A stretch of 64,000 nucleotides of DNA from Candidatus Heimdallarchaeota archaeon (GCA_018238545.1 JABCTC010000005.1:32001-96000), one strand, 5' to 3'. Shown: positions 8,221-16,208, counted from the stretch's first letter. Numbers and translations are program-made. Notes: generated by a model from the letters alone, not told the origin.

Positions 8221-8604
8221 TTATTCAATTTTTATTTCTTTTTCAAATTTCCAAAAACCATGTATATTGCAATAAGAGGTAGCAATAAGTTTTCCTGATT
8301 TTTCAGTTTTTAGTTGAAAAACTGCAAAGGGTTCAGAATAAACTCCACTTGTATCTGGACCGTTAATTGAAGCACCGTGAGCATCAAAATTAGCTAATCC
8401 AATTTGATAAGGATATTTCTCACCTTCTGGCCAAAACATTAGTTTTATCCATGAAATGTGATGTTCTGTTTTGTTGGGATGAGAGATCTCTTTACCTACA
8501 CTAACAGTAACAGGGGTTTTTTCTCCACTCTTAACAACGTCAACTACTTCAATAACAGGCACATGTTTTTCTGTTTTCCAATCAGCTGTTCCATATAAGT
8601 CCAT
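8221..8604 (-). CDS. sor: Superoxide reductase (neelaredoxin-type, class II)
   Basis: EKHVP, HPNKTEHHISWI and YCNIHG iron ligands; GGTGA SD upstream. Confidence 0.92.
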   Translation of the reverse strand: MDLYGTADWKTEKHVPVIEVVDVVKSGEKTPVTVSVGKEISHPNKTEHHISWIKLMFWPEGEKYPYQIGLANFDAHGASINGPDTSGVYSEPFAVFQLKTEKSGKLIATSYCNIHGFWKFEKEIKIE

Positions 8605-8716: not shown

Positions 8717-9148
8717 CTAATCGTCTTCGAGAACAGTGGGTTCAAGTGGGTAAGATTCTTTTGTTGGAGATGGTTGACCAGACTGATGAGCAGAAATATC
8801 GCTTTCTACCTCGTTTAGTTCTTGCTCTAGTTTATCTATTTCTCCTTCAACCTTTTTGATTCTTCTCTCAAACTCTCGTATTTTATATTCTTTTTCAGCG
8901 ATGTGCGCTTCTTTCTTCTTTGTTGCAACCTCACTTTTGAAAGCTTTATCTATCAACCCTTGTTGTTCAAAATCAATTTTCTTTAACAATTGTTCCTCTC
9001 GTTCTCTATTATCTCGAGCTTTCTTCTTCATTTGCTCAGCAATTTTTTTCTTCAAATCTTGCAAATCGCCTAGTTTTTTGAAAATGTCTTCTTCTACGTC
9101 GTGTTTTTTCTCTAGAAGTTTAAAATAATGAACATTCGATTCACTCAT
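8717..9148 (-). CDS. Hypothetical coiled-coil protein
   Basis: K/E-rich heptad pattern. Confidence 0.6.
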   Translation of the reverse strand: MSESNVHYFKLLEKKHDVEEDIFKKLGDLQDLKKKIAEQMKKKARDNREREEQLLKKIDFEQQGLIDKAFKSEVATKKKEAHIAEKEYKIREFERRIKKVEGEIDKLEQELNEVESDISAHQSGQPSPTKESYPLEPTVLEDD

Positions 9149-9335: not shown

Positions 9336-9459
9336 CGGACCTTAGCTCAGTGGCTTAGAGCTCTCGGCTGTAGTCAGGAGACACCCTTGTGAACAATGAT
9401 CAAGGCGTCAGTCGGTAGTAACCGAGCGGTCCCGTGTTCAAATCACGGAGGTCCGACCA
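9336..9459 (+). tRNA. tRNA-Tyr(GTA) with 47-nt intron (9374-9420) at 37/38, CCA encoded
   Basis: Acceptor CGGACCT/AGGTCCG (C1-G72, A73, CCA); D-stem GCTC/GAGC; anticodon stem CTCGG/CCGAG with GTA at 9370-9372; T-arm CCGTG-TTCAAAT-CACGG; relaxed BHB with helix CUGU/GUAG and bulges AG|U and UA|A. Confidence 0.93.
9374..9420 (+). ncRNA. tRNA intron with K-loop; candidate cis-acting H/ACA-like guide
   Basis: Stem ACCCUUG-U-GA[ACAAU]GA-U-CAAGG(C)GU gives tandem sheared G.A pairs, U.U and G-C. The flanking GAC and CAGUCGG are complementary to the bases around U35. Confidence 0.6.
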
Positions 9460-9468
9460 CTTTATTTT

Positions 9469-10227
9469 TTATTTTGTTTTCTTACCTATTGCTGTAAATA
9501 CGGGTATAAAGATCATCCTTCTATTCTGCTTAATCAGCTGTTGCTCTTTTTCCATAATTTGTTTAAACTCTGTTTCTGTAATCAGATTCGCCTCTAACAC
9601 TCTTTTCCATTCTTCCTCTATGTTATTAATTAAAGATTCTTTGTTCCAGGTTTGAGCTATAACAGAGATCTCAGTTTCTAGCCCTGCGGATTCAAAATAG
9701 GAGAGTAATTTTCTTCCAGCTAAAGGATCAGCACCTTCGTCTCTTAGATATTCAGTATGTTTTTTACCAAGGTTCATTTCAGGATATTCAACCCACCCTC
9801 CATAATCAGGTTCAGCTAAAGCTGCAACATATCCTTGTTTTTTACATACTCTGTAAATTTCATTCATTGCTTTAGTCGGATTCTTTAACCACAATAAGAG
9901 ATATTGAAAAAGCACAATATCGAATTTATTATCTTTCAAAGGAAGGTTTTCAACAGCCTCCACAAGAAATTCTACGTCTTCAACTCTCTGCTTCGCTACT
10001 TCAATCATTTTTTCATCTATATCGATAGCTGTTATCTTAGCAGATGTTCGAGATCTTAGTTCTCTAGTTATTGTTCCCATGCCACAACCAATTTCTAAGA
10101 TGTTTTTTGCTTTGGTTAAATCTATCTTTCTGTAGATTTGGTTGCGAAAAAAAAGGGTCCAAGAAGCTTGACGTTCAAACTGTTCTACTATTTCTGGACC
10201 CCAATTAACTCTCGGTTTTTCATTCAT
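9469..10227 (-). CDS. Class I SAM-dependent methyltransferase
   Basis: ILEIGCGMG motif I, AIDID, FDIVLFQYLLLWL. Start set at MNEKP (10227) because the longer ORF-track start overlaps the radical SAM gene. Confidence 0.88.
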   Translation of the reverse strand: MNEKPRVNWGPEIVEQFERQASWTLFFRNQIYRKIDLTKAKNILEIGCGMGTITRELRSRTSAKITAIDIDEKMIEVAKQRVEDVEFLVEAVENLPLKDNKFDIVLFQYLLLWLKNPTKAMNEIYRVCKKQGYVAALAEPDYGGWVEYPEMNLGKKHTEYLRDEGADPLAGRKLLSYFESAGLETEISVIAQTWNKESLINNIEEEWKRVLEANLITETEFKQIMEKEQQLIKQNRRMIFIPVFTAIGKKTK

Positions 10228-10249
10228 TTGAGACACACATTTGACAATA

Positions 10250-11557
10250 TTATGAGAAGGATTCTCTACAAACAGTAGTTGGAGCACTATAATTAAGAGG
10301 ACATCCTCCTCCACAGATTTCCACTTCAGGACAATCAGTGCACTCATCAGGTAGATATTTCATTTTCCTTAAACTCTTAGCAAGCTTGTGGTTCCATATT
10401 TTCTTCCATTTTGTGTTCAAGATATGGCCTAGTGGTTCAAAATAACTTTGACATGGAAGAACCATACCATCAGGTTCTATTGCCATGGCAATATGAGCTG
10501 CTGTGCATTGCTTTAATCCTAACCCTTTTTCAATTGGATTAAAATCGCAGTATCTTGTAGGACTGTACCAGAGGAAACCCATGTCTTTTTCTTCTGCTTT
10601 GTTCATTATCCGACTAATAACATCATCCAATGCTTCGACAGAGAGAGTGAAAGCTTCATCTTTTCCGCCTCCTGATTTGATGATACCATTTGCAGCAAAA
10701 TGGTCTATACCTAGAGAATCGAGGAAATCTATTGTTTTCTCAATATCTTTTATATTGTAAGGAGTTAAGGTTGTATTTGTTAAGATGTACACTGGAGTAG
10801 GAACGATGTTTTTTATTCCTTGAACAGTTTCTTTCCAAGCTCCTTTGAAACCGCAAAGTTCATCATGAAGCTTCTCATCGTGACTCTCGATTGTGATTTG
10901 GAAATGATCTATTCCAGCAGTAACTAGTTTGTCTACAAATTTCTTATCCTTAAACATCCTACCATTCGAGATTATACCAGTAATAATTCCCAAATCTTCA
11001 GCATAAGCTACTAACTCTGGTAAATCCTTTCTTAATGTAGGTTCCCCACCAGTAAAAGTTACATGAGGAATACCAATTTCCCACAGATTGTCTAGTACTT
11101 GTTTCCATTCGTCTGTAGTCAATTCAATGATTTCTCTCTTATGTTCGACATAACATTTAGTGCATTTATTATTGCATCTGTAGGTTAAGGCTAAATCCAT
11201 ACGTAAAGGAGCAGAGAAAGGAGTTTCTAGTAAAGAACTGATGTCTTGAGATAAGTGTTGCACAGGATCGATATCGGGTTTTGTTAAGAGATCCATTATT
11301 GATGTCTTGAAATCTACTAAGTCGTTCATCAGTTGAATCTCATCTACACGATATTTTCTTTTAACTTCGGATACAATTTCCTCATTGGTTTTCCCTTCAA
11401 TTATTCGAGAAGCAAAATCTGTTGCAGTTCTGTTTAAATGAAAAATTCTTGTAGCATTTACCAAGAGTAAACTATTACCCTTTTTCTCTTTCCTTAAATG
11501 CATTCTTGCAAAAGTATCTAAATTCCTTATATGGGACATTTTCTTTTCTCGCATCAT
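10250..11557 (-). CDS. PqqD/RRE-fused radical SAM protein with SPASM domain
   Basis: N-terminal RRE-like HLNRTATDF...GKTNEEIVSEVKRKYRVD; CNNKCTKC; TGGEP; SPASM C-x12-G-x4-C and CTDCPEVEICGGGC. ATG 11557 overlaps the upstream TGA (ATGA) and has a GGAGGTG SD. Confidence 0.92.
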   Translation of the reverse strand: MMREKKMSHIRNLDTFARMHLRKEKKGNSLLLVNATRIFHLNRTATDFASRIIEGKTNEEIVSEVKRKYRVDEIQLMNDLVDFKTSIMDLLTKPDIDPVQHLSQDISSLLETPFSAPLRMDLALTYRCNNKCTKCYVEHKREIIELTTDEWKQVLDNLWEIGIPHVTFTGGEPTLRKDLPELVAYAEDLGIITGIISNGRMFKDKKFVDKLVTAGIDHFQITIESHDEKLHDELCGFKGAWKETVQGIKNIVPTPVYILTNTTLTPYNIKDIEKTIDFLDSLGIDHFAANGIIKSGGGKDEAFTLSVEALDDVISRIMNKAEEKDMGFLWYSPTRYCDFNPIEKGLGLKQCTAAHIAMAIEPDGMVLPCQSYFEPLGHILNTKWKKIWNHKLAKSLRKMKYLPDECTDCPEVEICGGGCPLNYSAPTTVCRESFS

Positions 11558-13233
11558 CTTCCACCTCCGGCACAGGCACAGGCACAAGCACAGGCACAAG
11601 CACATCCTCCGCCACCACCACCACTTCGACCACTGCTTCTGGAAACAGGGGGACGAGTAGCTTTTTGTAAAGATTTTGTGAAGGTTTGTGGTTTTGCTAT
11701 GACTCCTGATTGGAGACTGCTAATTGGACCAACATGAGTTGATCCACTGTGGTGTTGAATCCTGAAGAATGATCTAGAAGCAGACCGTGTATATGAACGT
11801 CCTGTATAGAAATAGTAATTTCGGACATACCAATGTGGATAGTAGTAACCATCTCCTCGTCTTTCAAGACGTTCTTCATATCCTTCATCAACCATAATCC
11901 AAAGAAATGCATCTTTGAGTTCAGGAGTAGTTTTCTTCATCTCCTCCCATGATTTATCGATAATTTCCTCATAATGCTTCTTTGTTCTTCTAACGGAGTA
12001 ACCTTTCATCTTTTTCGAAACACCTTTAATACGTATTATGAGAGCTTTTTTCAATTCAGTTTGGTGAACTGGTTCTCGAGGGATAGCACCAGAACTAGCA
12101 CCTTTTTTCCATTTTATATCTTCCTTATTTCTTCGTCTAATACCCGCTATAATGCTTTGTTGATATTTAGGAAGCTGAGTAATTACTTGAGAACTAGCAA
12201 CCACTTGAAACCTTAAAACGGGTTTTGTGGTCTCAATCTCCAAATAACCTAATTTCATCATTTCAAATAATATCAACGTTGCAACTTGAGCTAATGGTCT
12301 TTGTAATAGTATTGCAACTTGTGAGGGAGTTAAATCCTTCTTCACACCCCCACCTAGAGTTGTTACTATTGGTGGAAGGTATTCCTTGCTCTTTCTTCTT
12401 TTCCTCAATAAGTAAAATATTACAATCACGGCCACTATAGCAAAGAAAATAATTATGTCTCTGTTGTTATATAGGGTTAAACTCCAGAAAACACTATGTA
12501 CTTTCACATATTCCTCCGGAAGACCAACAGCTGACATGTATCCTTGGGAAGGAGAGCCAATTTTATTAAATTCAATATAAGGTCCATCTGAAGATGAAGC
12601 TACAGATGTTGCATCACTAGGTTCAGCATGTAAAACATTCCAATCTGAAGAAGTTTGTCTTACTTTTGTTTCATCAATGTCAGTCAAAATTTCTGGAAAA
12701 TAATATCTTACTCTTCTTTCAGTTGTGCCACTTGCAAAAGAACCATCATACCAAGTTTGGAGAAAAACTACGGATGCAAAACCCTCTACACTGTCAGGAT
12801 ATACCATTGCAGGATTGTGACAAAAGACTTCTAAAACACCAAATTCTCCAGGATCAATTTGACTAGCACCAAGCCAAATTTCAACACCGATTTCTATATA
12901 CTCGCTTTTTTTGATTTTTGAACTAGCTATCTCTAAACCGTTCAATTTCGCGGTAACAGAGGATAACTCATAGTGATCATTTGGAAACCCAACATCAATT
13001 ACATCTATTGAACTATAACCAGGAATACAATAGAATTCCATCTCATAATATATATCAATTGAACCATCTTCTAAAATGTGAATATCTGTATACATATAAG
13101 GAATTTCAAAACCATAAACAGCATCTAATGTTGTTAATCCGTCATCGAAATCACTCGCTAAACTAGCACCAGAAACGATAAAAATCGATATGAACAAAGA
13201 ACAACTCACAAATAATAATAACCTTGATCTCAA
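11554..13233 (-). CDS. DUF2207-like single-pass membrane protein with C-terminal G6-(CA)6-GGGR tail
   Basis: TTG start with GGGGAG SD; signal peptide; ectodomain (IHILEDGSIDIYYEMEF); TM plus RKRRK; LTPSQVAILL...MMKLGYLEI; Ser/Gly-rich linker; CACACACACACAGGGR. Confidence 0.8.
   Translation of the reverse strand: MRSRLLLFVSCSLFISIFIVSGASLASDFDDGLTTLDAVYGFEIPYMYTDIHILEDGSIDIYYEMEFYCIPGYSSIDVIDVGFPNDHYELSSVTAKLNGLEIASSKIKKSEYIEIGVEIWLGASQIDPGEFGVLEVFCHNPAMVYPDSVEGFASVVFLQTWYDGSFASGTTERRVRYYFPEILTDIDETKVRQTSSDWNVLHAEPSDATSVASSSDGPYIEFNKIGSPSQGYMSAVGLPEEYVKVHSVFWSLTLYNNRDIIIFFAIVAVIVIFYLLRKRRKSKEYLPPIVTTLGGGVKKDLTPSQVAILLQRPLAQVATLILFEMMKLGYLEIETTKPVLRFQVVASSQVITQLPKYQQSIIAGIRRRNKEDIKWKKGASSGAIPREPVHQTELKKALIIRIKGVSKKMKGYSVRRTKKHYEEIIDKSWEEMKKTTPELKDAFLWIMVDEGYEERLERRGDGYYYPHWYVRNYYFYTGRSYTRSASRSFFRIQHHSGSTHVGPISSLQSGVIAKPQTFTKSLQKATRPPVSRSSGRSGGGGGGCACACACACACAGGGR
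11569..11604 (-). repeat. (TGTGCY)6 hexamer repeat encoding (Cys-Ala)6
   Basis: TGT GCT TGT GCC TGT GCT TGT GCC TGT GCC TGT GCC; the Ala codons vary synonymously. Confidence 0.95.
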
Positions 13234-13390
13234 ATTTTTTGCTCCCCAATTATTCTGTTAAAGTATATCTTTAATATGTCAAATCATTGAATAAACTAAT
13301 AATTAAAGTTATTGTATTAAATTTTCCAAGCTAAAATTCTATCACTAGTTGGCAAGATTTATTACAAGGATTACTTTCTGTTCCAATAGC

Positions 13391-13744
13391 ATGACCTCTG
13401 AAGGATTCCAAAAGATAATGCGAGTTATTTGGGAACAAACAAAGCCCTTACTGAGATTTTTACTAACAGTGACAGTCATAATGTCAATAGCAATTATAAT
13501 TATGCTATTTGTTTGGGGTTTTGATTTTCAAGATGATGCATTTCTCGTACTAGTTATAGCTGATATCTCTATTCTCATAATTTTTGTTGTTGGATTAATC
13601 ATTGTTGGAGTTAGACACGTGTTTACTGATTTAACAAAGGGTGATGAAGTTCCATGTAGGTTCTGCGGAGAGGATATAACAGGTGGGAGTAACATTTGCA
13701 CAAACTGTGGCAAGGACAATAGAAAGTTCACAGATTCAACATAA
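13391..13744 (+). CDS. 2-TM membrane protein with C-terminal zinc ribbon
   Basis: Two TM helices, then CRFC...CTNC; start set at the first ATG. Confidence 0.7.
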   Translation: MTSEGFQKIMRVIWEQTKPLLRFLLTVTVIMSIAIIIMLFVWGFDFQDDAFLVLVIADISILIIFVVGLIIVGVRHVFTDLTKGDEVPCRFCGEDITGGSNICTNCGKDNRKFTDST

Positions 13745-14810: not shown

Positions 14811-16208
14811 TTGTCTTCTTGTCTTATTAGACAAAGCTAAGTACATGTCGTGCTTAGAGCTCATGATATAGGGCGAAGATACTCTATACTCACTCTGAGT
14901 GGATACATCACGTATCCTCCTATCCCGTTCACCCTGCGTTTAGGCAAGGCTTTCGGATCGCTTTTTATCAATATATTATATGCAGCGTTAACATCAGCAT
15001 TGATCAAATAGCCAGTAGCAGAACGGAACAACCCTCGGCGAACCCTTTTCCCCTTGTACTTCTTACGATAACGGGGAAATTCATTATCCAGGAAACTGCT
15101 CTTGGAGGTGTATTGTTCAGGAATCGTCTCCACCTTTATCCCTTGCTCAGCTCCTTTATATTTTAGCATATCGATGATTTTCAAGTAAGGGATGGTGACG
15201 AACATCTGGGTGGTCTTTTTCCAGAAATGGAGATTCTGTTTCCATAGCTCATTGTAGCCTATGATCACTTCATGGAGCCCTCGTTCGACCCACAAGTCTA
15301 CCAGATACTTGGTTAATTTGTGGATAGCATCATTCAGTTTCCTTCTCCACTTTTCTTTGAGTTTGTAGTAAGCTGGGCCATACTTGAGTCTGTTCTTATT
15401 TTGCAAATGCTTTCTCTGCTGCTGACTATACTGTAGTTGTAATTTCTTCTGTTCTTTCAAATAATATTGTGTAATGGATTTTATGCCTTTCCCTGCATCT
15501 TTGATAACAATCGGTCTTCCTCCGAGGTTATCTACGAAAGTGGCAAGGTTGTCCATCCCTAACTCTATCGCTCCTTTTCTGATTATTTTCTTCTTGAGAT
15601 TGGGTATACTCTTGAGATAAACAAGTTCAAGGGCATAGTGAGTTCTCCTTGGAATGATTCTTACTTCTCTTAACTCCGCTTGAGCTGTCAGTCTTGTCTT
15701 GCAGGTGTACTTCACTTTCTTAGGTAGCACCAACCATCCATTTACTATCTTCGCTTGTTGATTGGTGAAGATGGCTACCACTTCGCCATCCTTCTTCTTG
15801 TAGTTAGGTGGATTAGGCATGGCAAAAAACAATGTTGGGTTCCTCTTCCACTCTTGTTTCGCTTGGAAATAGCTCTTCCAACATCTAGAAAGAAGCTTGA
15901 GCGTCTGTTGGGCAACATGGGCGGGAAGAACACGATAGCACTCCTCCAGTTTCAACTGTTTGTCAAGACCGTAGTAAAAGAGAAGTTTGCTTGTTTGCTT
16001 CAAAGAAGTTTTTATTAGAAAATTTGCCCGATTATAGAGATTTTTAGCTTGATGACAGATTCTGCTAAGTGCTGGATGATACACCACTTCTATACGTTCT
16101 GCACGCAGTACCTTTGCCATCCTTCGTTGACCTAGAGTTCACTATAAAAACACCCGTACTATCACTAAAATTTTTCTAGATTTACAACTTAACAAGACAA
16201 AAAGACAA
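14811..16208 (-). mobile_element. Non-autonomous TnpB-only insertion sequence (IS200/IS605/IS607 superfamily)
   Basis: Visibly higher GC than the flanks; tnpB only; imperfect inverted repeats at 14811-14830 and 16189-16208 (17/20); repeated TTGTCT motifs and hairpins at the ends. Boundaries are approximate. Confidence 0.7.
14861..16120 (-). CDS. tnpB: TnpB-family RNA-guided nuclease (rearranged RuvC; RuvC-I Asp to Glu)
   Basis: AKNLYN, PNPPNYK, AIELGMDNLAT, VIIGYN..WKQ, PEQYTSK, RGLFRS..G..INADVNAAYNI. Confidence 0.92.
   Translation of the reverse strand: MAKVLRAERIEVVYHPALSRICHQAKNLYNRANFLIKTSLKQTSKLLFYYGLDKQLKLEECYRVLPAHVAQQTLKLLSRCWKSYFQAKQEWKRNPTLFFAMPNPPNYKKKDGEVVAIFTNQQAKIVNGWLVLPKKVKYTCKTRLTAQAELREVRIIPRRTHYALELVYLKSIPNLKKKIIRKGAIELGMDNLATFVDNLGGRPIVIKDAGKGIKSITQYYLKEQKKLQLQYSQQQRKHLQNKNRLKYGPAYYKLKEKWRRKLNDAIHKLTKYLVDLWVERGLHEVIIGYNELWKQNLHFWKKTTQMFVTIPYLKIIDMLKYKGAEQGIKVETIPEQYTSKSSFLDNEFPRYRKKYKGKRVRRGLFRSATGYLINADVNAAYNILIKSDPKALPKRRVNGIGGYVMYPLRVSIEYLRPIS

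Follow-up and report, generated by a model that had tools for sequence, protein, structure and literature searches.

What would an enzyme of the peptide-maturing kind act on when the gene translationally coupled to it encodes a large membrane protein? This question is raised by positions 9,469 to 13,233 of a 64,000-nucleotide stretch of Candidatus Heimdallarchaeota archaeon DNA (GCA_018238545.1, JABCTC010000005.1:32001-96000), from here on referred to as the window, in which a membrane protein of 559 amino acids ending in (Cys-Ala)6-Gly-Gly-Gly-Arg is encoded together with a radical S-adenosylmethionine (SAM) enzyme and a methyltransferase. Radical SAM enzymes of the type that act on peptides made by the ribosome and modified after translation (RiPPs) have been studied almost wholly as makers of small secreted peptides. 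In the literature searched, only two cases were found in which such enzymes crosslink whole proteins, and both substrates are soluble. Based on gene organization, conservation and comparison with characterized enzymes, we suggest that the radical SAM enzyme probably modifies the cytoplasmic Cys-Ala tail, most likely by forming thioether crosslinks, with methylation as an optional addition and the product staying on the protein. If this holds true, radical SAM crosslinking chemistry would extend to the tail of a membrane protein.

The operon and its Cys-Ala tail

All three genes are located on the minus strand. The tail-bearing membrane protein is encoded at 11554..13233 (identified as an open reading frame (ORF) and by translation), the 435-residue enzyme, which combines a RiPP recognition element (RRE) with radical SAM and SPASM domains, at 10250..11557 (residues encoded by 10253-11557) and the 252-residue class I SAM-dependent methyltransferase at 9469..10227 (residues encoded by 9472-10227). 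The TGA stop codon of the membrane protein gene (11554-11556) overlaps the ATG of the radical SAM gene at 11557, giving ATGA, and the final Gly/Arg codons, GGAGGTGGAAGA, form a Shine-Dalgarno-like run in front of it, so that 11554..11573 (minus strand) constitutes a translational coupling signal in which GGAGGTG is spaced 4 nt from the ATG. The same ATGA overlap, or a gap of a few nucleotides, recurs in three further loci (L001, L003 and L109) and in many loci of the class A arrangement described below. The methyltransferase start codon (ATG at 10227) follows 22 nt past the radical SAM stop codon. At its 5′ side, the operon is preceded by an AT-rich 115-nt spacer; the membrane protein gene starts with TTG, with a GGGGAG run 7 nt before the start, inside this spacer. 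The GC content is about 33%. A survey of small ORFs between 8600 and 13900 revealed no separate small precursor: all Cys-containing small ORFs in this interval are antisense shadows within larger genes, with 0 intergenic and 0 on the operon strand. No alternative substrate is therefore available within the operon. A sequence-only reading of this DNA had described three co-oriented genes, the ATGA overlap with its Shine-Dalgarno-like Gly codons, the 22-nt methyltransferase spacing, the missing precursor ORF, the (Cys-Ala)6-GGGR tail, the RRE-radical SAM/SPASM make-up of the 435-residue protein and, for the membrane protein, a signal, an ectodomain, one transmembrane (TM) helix and a cytoplasmic domain; ORF analysis, translation, Pfam searches and structure prediction recover each of these features.

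The membrane protein terminates in SGRSGGGGGG-(CA)6-GGGR. Its last 16 residues, which represent the proposed modification site, are encoded at 11557..11604 (minus strand) by (TGTGCY)6 followed by GGAGGTGGAAGATGATG, and the source genome contains a single copy of this tail. The closest homologues are all encoded in Heimdallarchaeota metagenome-assembled genomes (MAGs), and homologues at 42-85% identity, plus one at 24%, all end in Cys-Ala repeats followed by GGG. Searched exhaustively with HMMER, a set of 1.8 billion cluster representatives yielded 549 homologue clusters at E<=1e-3. Among these, 157 homologues were listed, 130 of which carry the tail as their C-terminal end; the 27 exceptions are for the most part evidently cut short. 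The last ten positions are invariant or almost so across 50 aligned sequences whose mean identity is 31%, with C550, C552, A553, C554, A555, G556-558 and R559 invariant. The near-unchanging tail of 16-19 residues would make a very clean substrate for mass spectrometry.

At the DNA level, the near-perfect (TGTGCY)6 repeat of the window could also be read as a slippage-prone hexanucleotide microsatellite without function, in which case its adjacency to the enzyme gene would be coincidental. However, across 59 loci with identical last ten residues, each Cys, Ala and Gly position draws on a mixture of synonymous codons while the residue stays constant, which argues that the tail is a protein motif and not a DNA repeat. 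Judged from these alignments, the tail is under selection at the protein level. When 596 Gb were searched with a degenerate DNA pattern that encodes three Cys-Ala pairs and GGG, at least 119 loci were found, compared with an estimated 2 or so expected by chance, and about 113 among the 119 matches listed are in-frame tails of homologous proteins. Bacterial matches stem from Anaerolineae and other Chloroflexota, Lachnospiraceae and other Clostridia, Planctomycetota and Hydrogenedentes, and archaeal matches from Bathyarchaeia, Methanomassiliicoccales, Thermoplasmatota, Nanoarchaeia and Ca. Heimdallarchaeum aukensis.

Linkage of tail and enzyme across phyla

A homologue of the window radical SAM enzyme is encoded on the same strand in 95 of the 113 tail loci among the matches listed, and the linked loci span Chloroflexota, Bacillota, Planctomycetota, Bathyarchaeia and Asgard archaea. 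Three arrangements could be distinguished. In class A (73 loci; Chloroflexota and archaea), the protein ends in GGGR and the enzyme gene lies immediately downstream, often overlapping. Class B (40 loci; Bacillota) encodes the enzyme immediately upstream, and the tail is followed by 20-40 further residues. In Planctomycetota and similar genomes, the protein again ends in GGGR with the enzyme gene located upstream. The change from a downstream position in class A to an upstream one in class B indicates that the pairing survived rearrangement. For five genomes without a radical SAM gene in the fetched tail-locus DNA, an orthologue was found elsewhere in all five (E 1e-152 to 1e-194). Whether tail-bearing homologues keep a linked RRE-radical SAM-SPASM enzyme had been set beforehand as a refutation test; 95 of 113 loci do, and the five exceptions carry the enzyme unlinked. 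This linkage, the recovery of unlinked enzymes and the mixing of codons refute the microsatellite explanation, to which we give practically no weight; it would also have to account for the joint occurrence of motif and enzyme over many bacterial and archaeal phyla.

Within Asgard archaea, 200 genomes were compared, 69 of which encode both genes, 116 neither, 2 the tail protein alone and 13 the radical SAM enzyme alone. Generally, the same genomes of a family carry or lack both genes (f1 18/20, f5 6/10 and f13 4/40). As these genomes are related by descent, the presence and absence counts do not amount to a statistical test, but they do follow a clear trend. One family, f16, departs from this pattern and is considered below.

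A second, related system was found in Asgard family f10, where membrane proteins of about 725-924 residues end in (Ala-Cys-His-Ser)n followed by GGGR, GGYR or GGWG. Three such loci were located, L134 (3697-5871, minus strand), L135 (10076-12331, plus strand) and L138 (6608-9379, plus strand). The protein of about 725 residues matches the cytoplasmic domain of the membrane protein family of the window (E ~1e-20), and a diverged RRE-radical SAM-SPASM enzyme is encoded nearby (E ~1e-110; PqqD domain, 35 bits), in L138 upstream and on the same strand. A Zn-ribbon membrane protein is also found near the sister gene in L134. The two systems thus share a related membrane protein, a Cys-repeat tail that can end in GGGR and a related enzyme nearby, while in the sister the repeat has a period of four and contains His, and the enzyme clade has diverged. 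A repeat type that changes with the enzyme clade is expected for an enzyme and its substrate. Repeats of Cys also define the ACGX/CXXX-repeat radical SAM target systems of Haft, however, the window enzyme scores far below the cutoff of the ACGX model (TIGR04340, 66.2 bits against 400). No NCBIfam model exists for either the Cys-Ala or the (ACHS)n system.

The radical SAM enzyme and its candidate chemistry

Pfam searches assign three domains to the 435-residue enzyme, all above cutoff: a PqqD-like RRE (PF05402) at residues 33-83, encoded at 11309..11461 on the minus strand (28.3 bits against 23.4), a Radical_SAM domain (PF04055) at residues 124-279 (98 against 29.5) and a SPASM domain (PF13186) at residues 351-410 (40.2 against 21.5). 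The RRE was also detected in Planctomycetota-type (29.7 bits) and (ACHS)n-type enzymes (35.3) and, below threshold, in one Chloroflexota enzyme (20.4). The CxxxCxxC motif (C128/C132/C135) is unchanged in each of 43 orthologues, of which 41-43 also keep the SPASM cysteines, seven in number (C337, C351, C369, C406, C409, C415 and C419). Further positions conserved in these orthologues from Asgard archaea to Chloroflexota are Y136, F168-T169-G-G-E, Q220, T222, S225 and C369-Q370-S371. The best solved relatives by sequence are SkfB (6EFN, E 1.3e-27), PqqE (6C8V, 1.6e-20) and SuiB (5V1Q, 3.3e-15); with the limit set at 1e-8, the sequence matches in the PDB did not include CteB. SkfB, PqqE and SuiB share the RRE, radical SAM and SPASM-or-twitch architecture and are peptide modifiers, which, together with the RRE, the CxxxCxxC motif and the seven-Cys SPASM domain, favors a peptide- or protein-modifying function for the window enzyme. 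They differ in that their substrates are small dedicated peptides.

None of the curated NCBIfam equivalogs is reached by the enzyme, all scores being far below cutoff. The best is PqqE (TIGR02109, 138.8 bits against 381.35), with NirJ2 at 136 and AhbD at 121 bits; SkfB (TIGR04403) gives 115 against 300, StsB (NF045574) 84.9 against 625 and AlbA (NF012164) 74.8 against 850, and the mycofactocin maturase model scores as well.

Literature searches with the tail motif, with Cys-Ala repeats combined with radical SAM, and with DUF2207 yielded no description of this system. The sequence-only reading had stated that no characterized system is like it, which stands for the system itself but not for the underlying principle, radical SAM/SPASM crosslinking of whole proteins having been published for QhpD and CrpC/CrpA. 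CrpC of Methanococcus voltae is an archaeal RRE-radical SAM-SPASM enzyme that forms ranthionine thioethers on the neighboring, protein-sized Cys-repeat protein CrpA, and its modified motifs include Cys-Ala (ACAGM, CAVD and PCAGD) (PMC13692751, 2026). Common to both systems are the archaeal RRE, radical SAM and SPASM architecture with three [4Fe-4S] clusters and a neighboring, protein-sized Cys-repeat protein as known or candidate substrate. However, CrpA is soluble and consists of ten 17-residue repeats with a leader-like N-terminus, whereas the candidate site here comprises the C-terminal 16-19 residues of a membrane protein. CrpC is filed under TIGR04463 in that study, a model not among the 25 best NCBIfam matches of the window enzyme, and the study makes no mention of a membrane protein or a Cys-Ala tail (PMC13692751).

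StsB forms a hairpin in which a C-x-C-x-C run is joined to G-x-G-x-G (PMC10288494). In the StsB/StsA and BlaB/BlaA systems, RRE-dependent SPASM radical SAM enzymes connect alternating C-x-C-x-C donors with Gly acceptors, and the tail described here is likewise Cys-alternating and flanked by Gly runs. StsA differs in being a short RiPP precursor served by a separate RRE protein, StsC. Read from published motif landmarks, without structural superposition, the invariant Y136 (after CxxxCxxC) and T169 (before GGEP) give a weak hint that the first two catalytic-proximity positions are those of StsB (Y113/T147) rather than CteB (F112/F152). A third parallel is the radical SAM enzyme QhpD, which crosslinks a whole subunit, QhpC (PMC7876137). 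Here, the likeness, drawn by description and not by homology, lies in intra-protein thioether crosslinks within a subunit that remains part of a functional protein; QhpC itself, a small subunit that is soluble and periplasmic, carries Cys-to-Asp/Glu links and a quinone cofactor. The present system appears to work like the CrpC, StsB and QhpD systems yet, by its equivalog scores, belongs to none of these families. It also falls outside the strict definition of a RiPP, that is, a short leader-core precursor and proteolytic release, the candidate substrate being the end of a 559-residue protein.

We propose the following sequence of events. Once the 559-residue protein has been inserted, its β-sandwich facing outward and its C-terminal half facing the cytoplasm, the co-translated RRE-radical SAM-SPASM enzyme would engage the disordered Gly linker and (Cys-Ala)6-GGGR and modify the cysteines by 5′-deoxyadenosyl radical chemistry assisted by two auxiliary clusters. 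The likeliest products would be intramolecular thioether crosslinks (sactionine or ranthionine), giving a rigid ladder or hairpin. In lineages that carry the methyltransferase gene, a tailoring methylation may be added, and the product would stay on the membrane protein as a functional end-piece. Translational coupling and same-strand linkage that survived rearrangement across phyla favor an enzyme-substrate pair. Prediction of a complex between the enzyme, residues 490-559 of the membrane protein, three 4Fe-4S clusters and SAM gave a score of 0.02, which speaks neither for nor against binding.

Several observations weigh against the tail being the substrate. The radical SAM core scores equally against cofactor enzymes (PqqE, NirJ2 and AhbD) and peptide maturases, and no Pfam RRE match was obtained in three Bacillota enzymes. 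Alternating Cys-X-Cys is a classic thiolate metal-binding site, and the (Ala-Cys-His-Ser)n tail of the sister system also offers His, which typically ligates metals. In Asgard family f16, the radical SAM and methyltransferase genes form one locus, while the Zn-ribbon and tail genes are found in another. Moreover, the enzyme is encoded in 19/19 sampled f16 MAGs but the tail gene in 10/19, leaving 9/19 without a detectable tail gene, and in five enzyme-only MAGs with a completeness of 78-89% the DNA pattern of the tail is missing as well. Incompleteness may explain part of these missing tail genes but probably not all of them, and the enzyme may have a second substrate in f16. At two f16 loci, the radical SAM and methyltransferase genes (L131 5005-7845 and L132 5049-7902) adjoin a gene for a 200-residue membrane protein that by eye resembles a VIT1/CCC1-like iron transporter.

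Much of this could be accommodated if the tail were an unmodified metal or Fe-S ladder and the radical SAM enzyme were linked to it for another reason, either because the tail gives clusters or metal to the enzyme, takes them from it or acts as their scaffold, or because the membrane protein anchors or regulates a radical SAM enzyme working on lipids or small molecules. The radical SAM core indeed scores highest against cofactor-type SPASM enzymes (PqqE 139, NirJ2 136 and AhbD 121 bits), f16 genomes retain the enzyme and methyltransferase without a detectable tail gene, and upregulation on pyrite has been reported for the Crp proteins of M. voltae (PMC13692751). Still, metal binding alone requires no invariant Ala or Gly and no exact GGGR end across phyla, the fused RRE is a peptide-recognition device, and the closest characterized RRE-bearing relatives have peptides or proteins as substrates. 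Translational coupling and a linkage that withstood rearrangement also suit an enzyme and its substrate, and we consider the unmodified ladder unlikely.

Even if the tail is modified, it could be a sacrificial precursor, an option already raised in the sequence-only reading; cleavage at the Gly linker would then free a small crosslinked peptide or cofactor, as in pyrroloquinoline quinone (PQQ) and mycofactocin biosynthesis, with the membrane protein serving as a carrier. The PqqE model giving the best NCBIfam score, the score of the mycofactocin maturase and the long Gly run before a tail whose end is fixed as GGGR all fit such a scheme. However, the conserved module encodes no protease, exporter or further tailoring enzymes, its recurring partners being a Zn-ribbon membrane protein, a radical SAM-like paralogue and the methyltransferase. 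Consuming one 559-residue membrane protein per product molecule would be costly, the remaining protein is well conserved and well folded, and the Bacillota tail is internal, with 20-40 residues beyond it. Release of the tail is therefore quite improbable in our view, and retention on the protein remains the preferred outcome.

The carrier protein, partner genes and surroundings

The AlphaFold2 (AF2) model of the membrane protein (predicted local distance difference test score (pLDDT) 85.9) consists of an N-terminal hydrophobic signal or anchor, a β-sandwich ectodomain (residues 38-242), a TM helix (254-282), which is the second hydrophobic helix of the model, a cytoplasmic half made up of a winged-helix-like unit and a helical domain (~300-526), and a disordered Gly-rich linker with the tail (539-559). 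The sequence RKRRKSK directly follows the TM helix and, by the positive-inside rule, places the C-terminus in the cytoplasm. Searches of Pfam and NCBIfam assigned no family to this protein or to its bacterial and archaeal relatives, and a PDB profile search with its alignment returned nothing. Protein clusters with the system number in the hundreds and come from gut Bacillota, Chloroflexota, methanogen relatives and Asgard archaea, yet it has neither a Pfam or NCBIfam family nor a paper that we could find.

The closest fold to the modelled ectodomain (38-242) is that of 6ezn_A, residues 227-446 of Ost1 (Z 16.3, rmsd 2.8 Å, 182 aligned residues), followed by 8pn9_E (Z 14.2), with the N-domains of M1 aminopeptidases trailing at about Z 12. 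We take these two chains to be yeast Ost1 and human ribophorin I, matched in their membrane-proximal luminal domain. The Ost1/ribophorin I-like domain directly precedes the TM helix in both proteins. The resemblance of the predicted ectodomain to Ost1/ribophorin I is at the fold level only. In Pfam, the membrane protein has no match to the Ribophorin I family (PF04597), a separate homologue of which is encoded on another contig of the source genome (G000:C43:24363-25139, 62 bits), and hhalign found nothing between the two proteins.

Modelled alone, the cytoplasmic domain (286-526; pLDDT 84, predicted template modelling score (pTM) 0.82) matches GOLPH3 (Z 6.3, 161 aligned residues) and Vps74 (Z 5.2, 162 aligned), all other matches being at Z<=2.6; a Foldseek search of the PDB with this domain gave nothing at E<=0.001. 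A GOLPH3/Vps74-like fold is therefore a modest lead from modelling. The likeness of an Asgard carrier to two eukaryotic endomembrane folds, Ost1 outside and GOLPH3 inside, adds cautious extra interest.

The membrane protein family is probably a branch of the DUF2207 superfamily (PF09972/PF20990), which we regard as a lead rather than a result. The protein of the window has no DUF2207 match at E<=5 in Pfam; DUF2207_C gives weak sub-threshold matches in 12 of 50 family members (best E 9.9e-5) and the N-domain in one, and neighbors in the ESM Atlas include DUF2207 clusters. DUF2207 proteins, such as S. mutans SMU.243 (PMC10457818), likewise have an exported β-rich domain, a TM helix, a cytoplasmic domain and a Gly-rich C-terminus.

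Taking these parts together, we tentatively advance a broader proposal that could well need revision: a widespread system, shared by anaerobic Bacteria and Archaea of many phyla, in which a RiPP-type radical SAM maturase permanently rebuilds the Cys-Ala tail of a membrane protein into a crosslinked, sometimes methylated functional end, for example a redox- or metal-responsive or signalling one, on a carrier that would be Ost1/ribophorin I-like outside and GOLPH3/Vps74-like inside.

The methyltransferase matches Methyltransf_11 (PF08241) with 90 bits against a Pfam cutoff of 21.2, in agreement with its class I assignment, while no NCBIfam equivalog is reached. A homologous methyltransferase is encoded in 29 class A loci, including 17 of the 26 with enough downstream DNA. 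From this distribution, the methyltransferase is an accessory member of the module. A second, radical SAM-like paralogue is present in 18 of 26 class A loci with sufficient flanking DNA. In nine Chloroflexota loci (L012, L027, L040, L050, L065, L069, L085, L091 and L092), a conserved protein of about 114 residues, PAS-like by eye, is encoded downstream of the cassette on the same strand.

In 38 of 46 class A loci, the gene directly upstream of the tail gene encodes a protein of about 124 residues that has two TM helices as well as a Zn ribbon and ends in EEPKW. Bacillota tail proteins contain a Zn-ribbon domain of their own, and the tail gene of Ca. H. aukensis is directly preceded by a diverged copy of the Zn-ribbon gene. 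In the source genome, the homologue of this partner is unlinked (G000:C100:25701-26042, equivalent to L152 1468-1887, plus strand; E 6.7e-12) and adjoins the same luciferase-like oxidoreductase gene as in H. aukensis (L079). Its location on another contig beside the same oxidoreductase suggests that the block of tail, radical SAM and methyltransferase genes moved away from the Zn-ribbon partner in this genus. New here are this unlinked partner, the Ost1-like and GOLPH3-like folds, the recovery of unlinked enzymes in five of five genomes and the Asgard comparison with its f16 exception.

A divergent ORF of 131 residues next to the operon (13349-13744, plus strand), conserved in the genus, likewise combines two TM helices with a Zn ribbon, here a short one of the form CxxC-x10-CxxC. 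It was considered as the Zn-ribbon partner and rejected: it has no match to the partner profile, its homologues lie on contigs other than that of the tail gene in all genus genomes but one, and the true partner homologue is located elsewhere. The 131-residue ORF thus probably does not belong to the module.

Two genes upstream of the operon, a 419-residue ORF (14861-16120, minus strand) appears TnpB/OrfB-like by eye, and no transposase gene was seen adjoining it. Downstream of the operon, a 143-residue coiled-coil protein and a 127-residue ORF are encoded at 8717-9148 and 8221-8604, respectively, both on the minus strand. The L001 counterpart of the latter carries a Pfam Desulfoferrodox domain, suggesting a superoxide reductase-like protein. 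The order of these two genes is kept in L001 and L109, representing genus-level synteny, and beyond the genus no association with the module was observed. An ARAGORN scan of the window returned no tRNAs and missed an intron-bearing tRNA of 121 nt detected with Rfam at 9336-9456 (plus strand; RF00005, 50.2 bits, full model), which lies on the strand opposite to the operon, 13 nt from the methyltransferase stop codon, and bounds the 3′ end of the operon.

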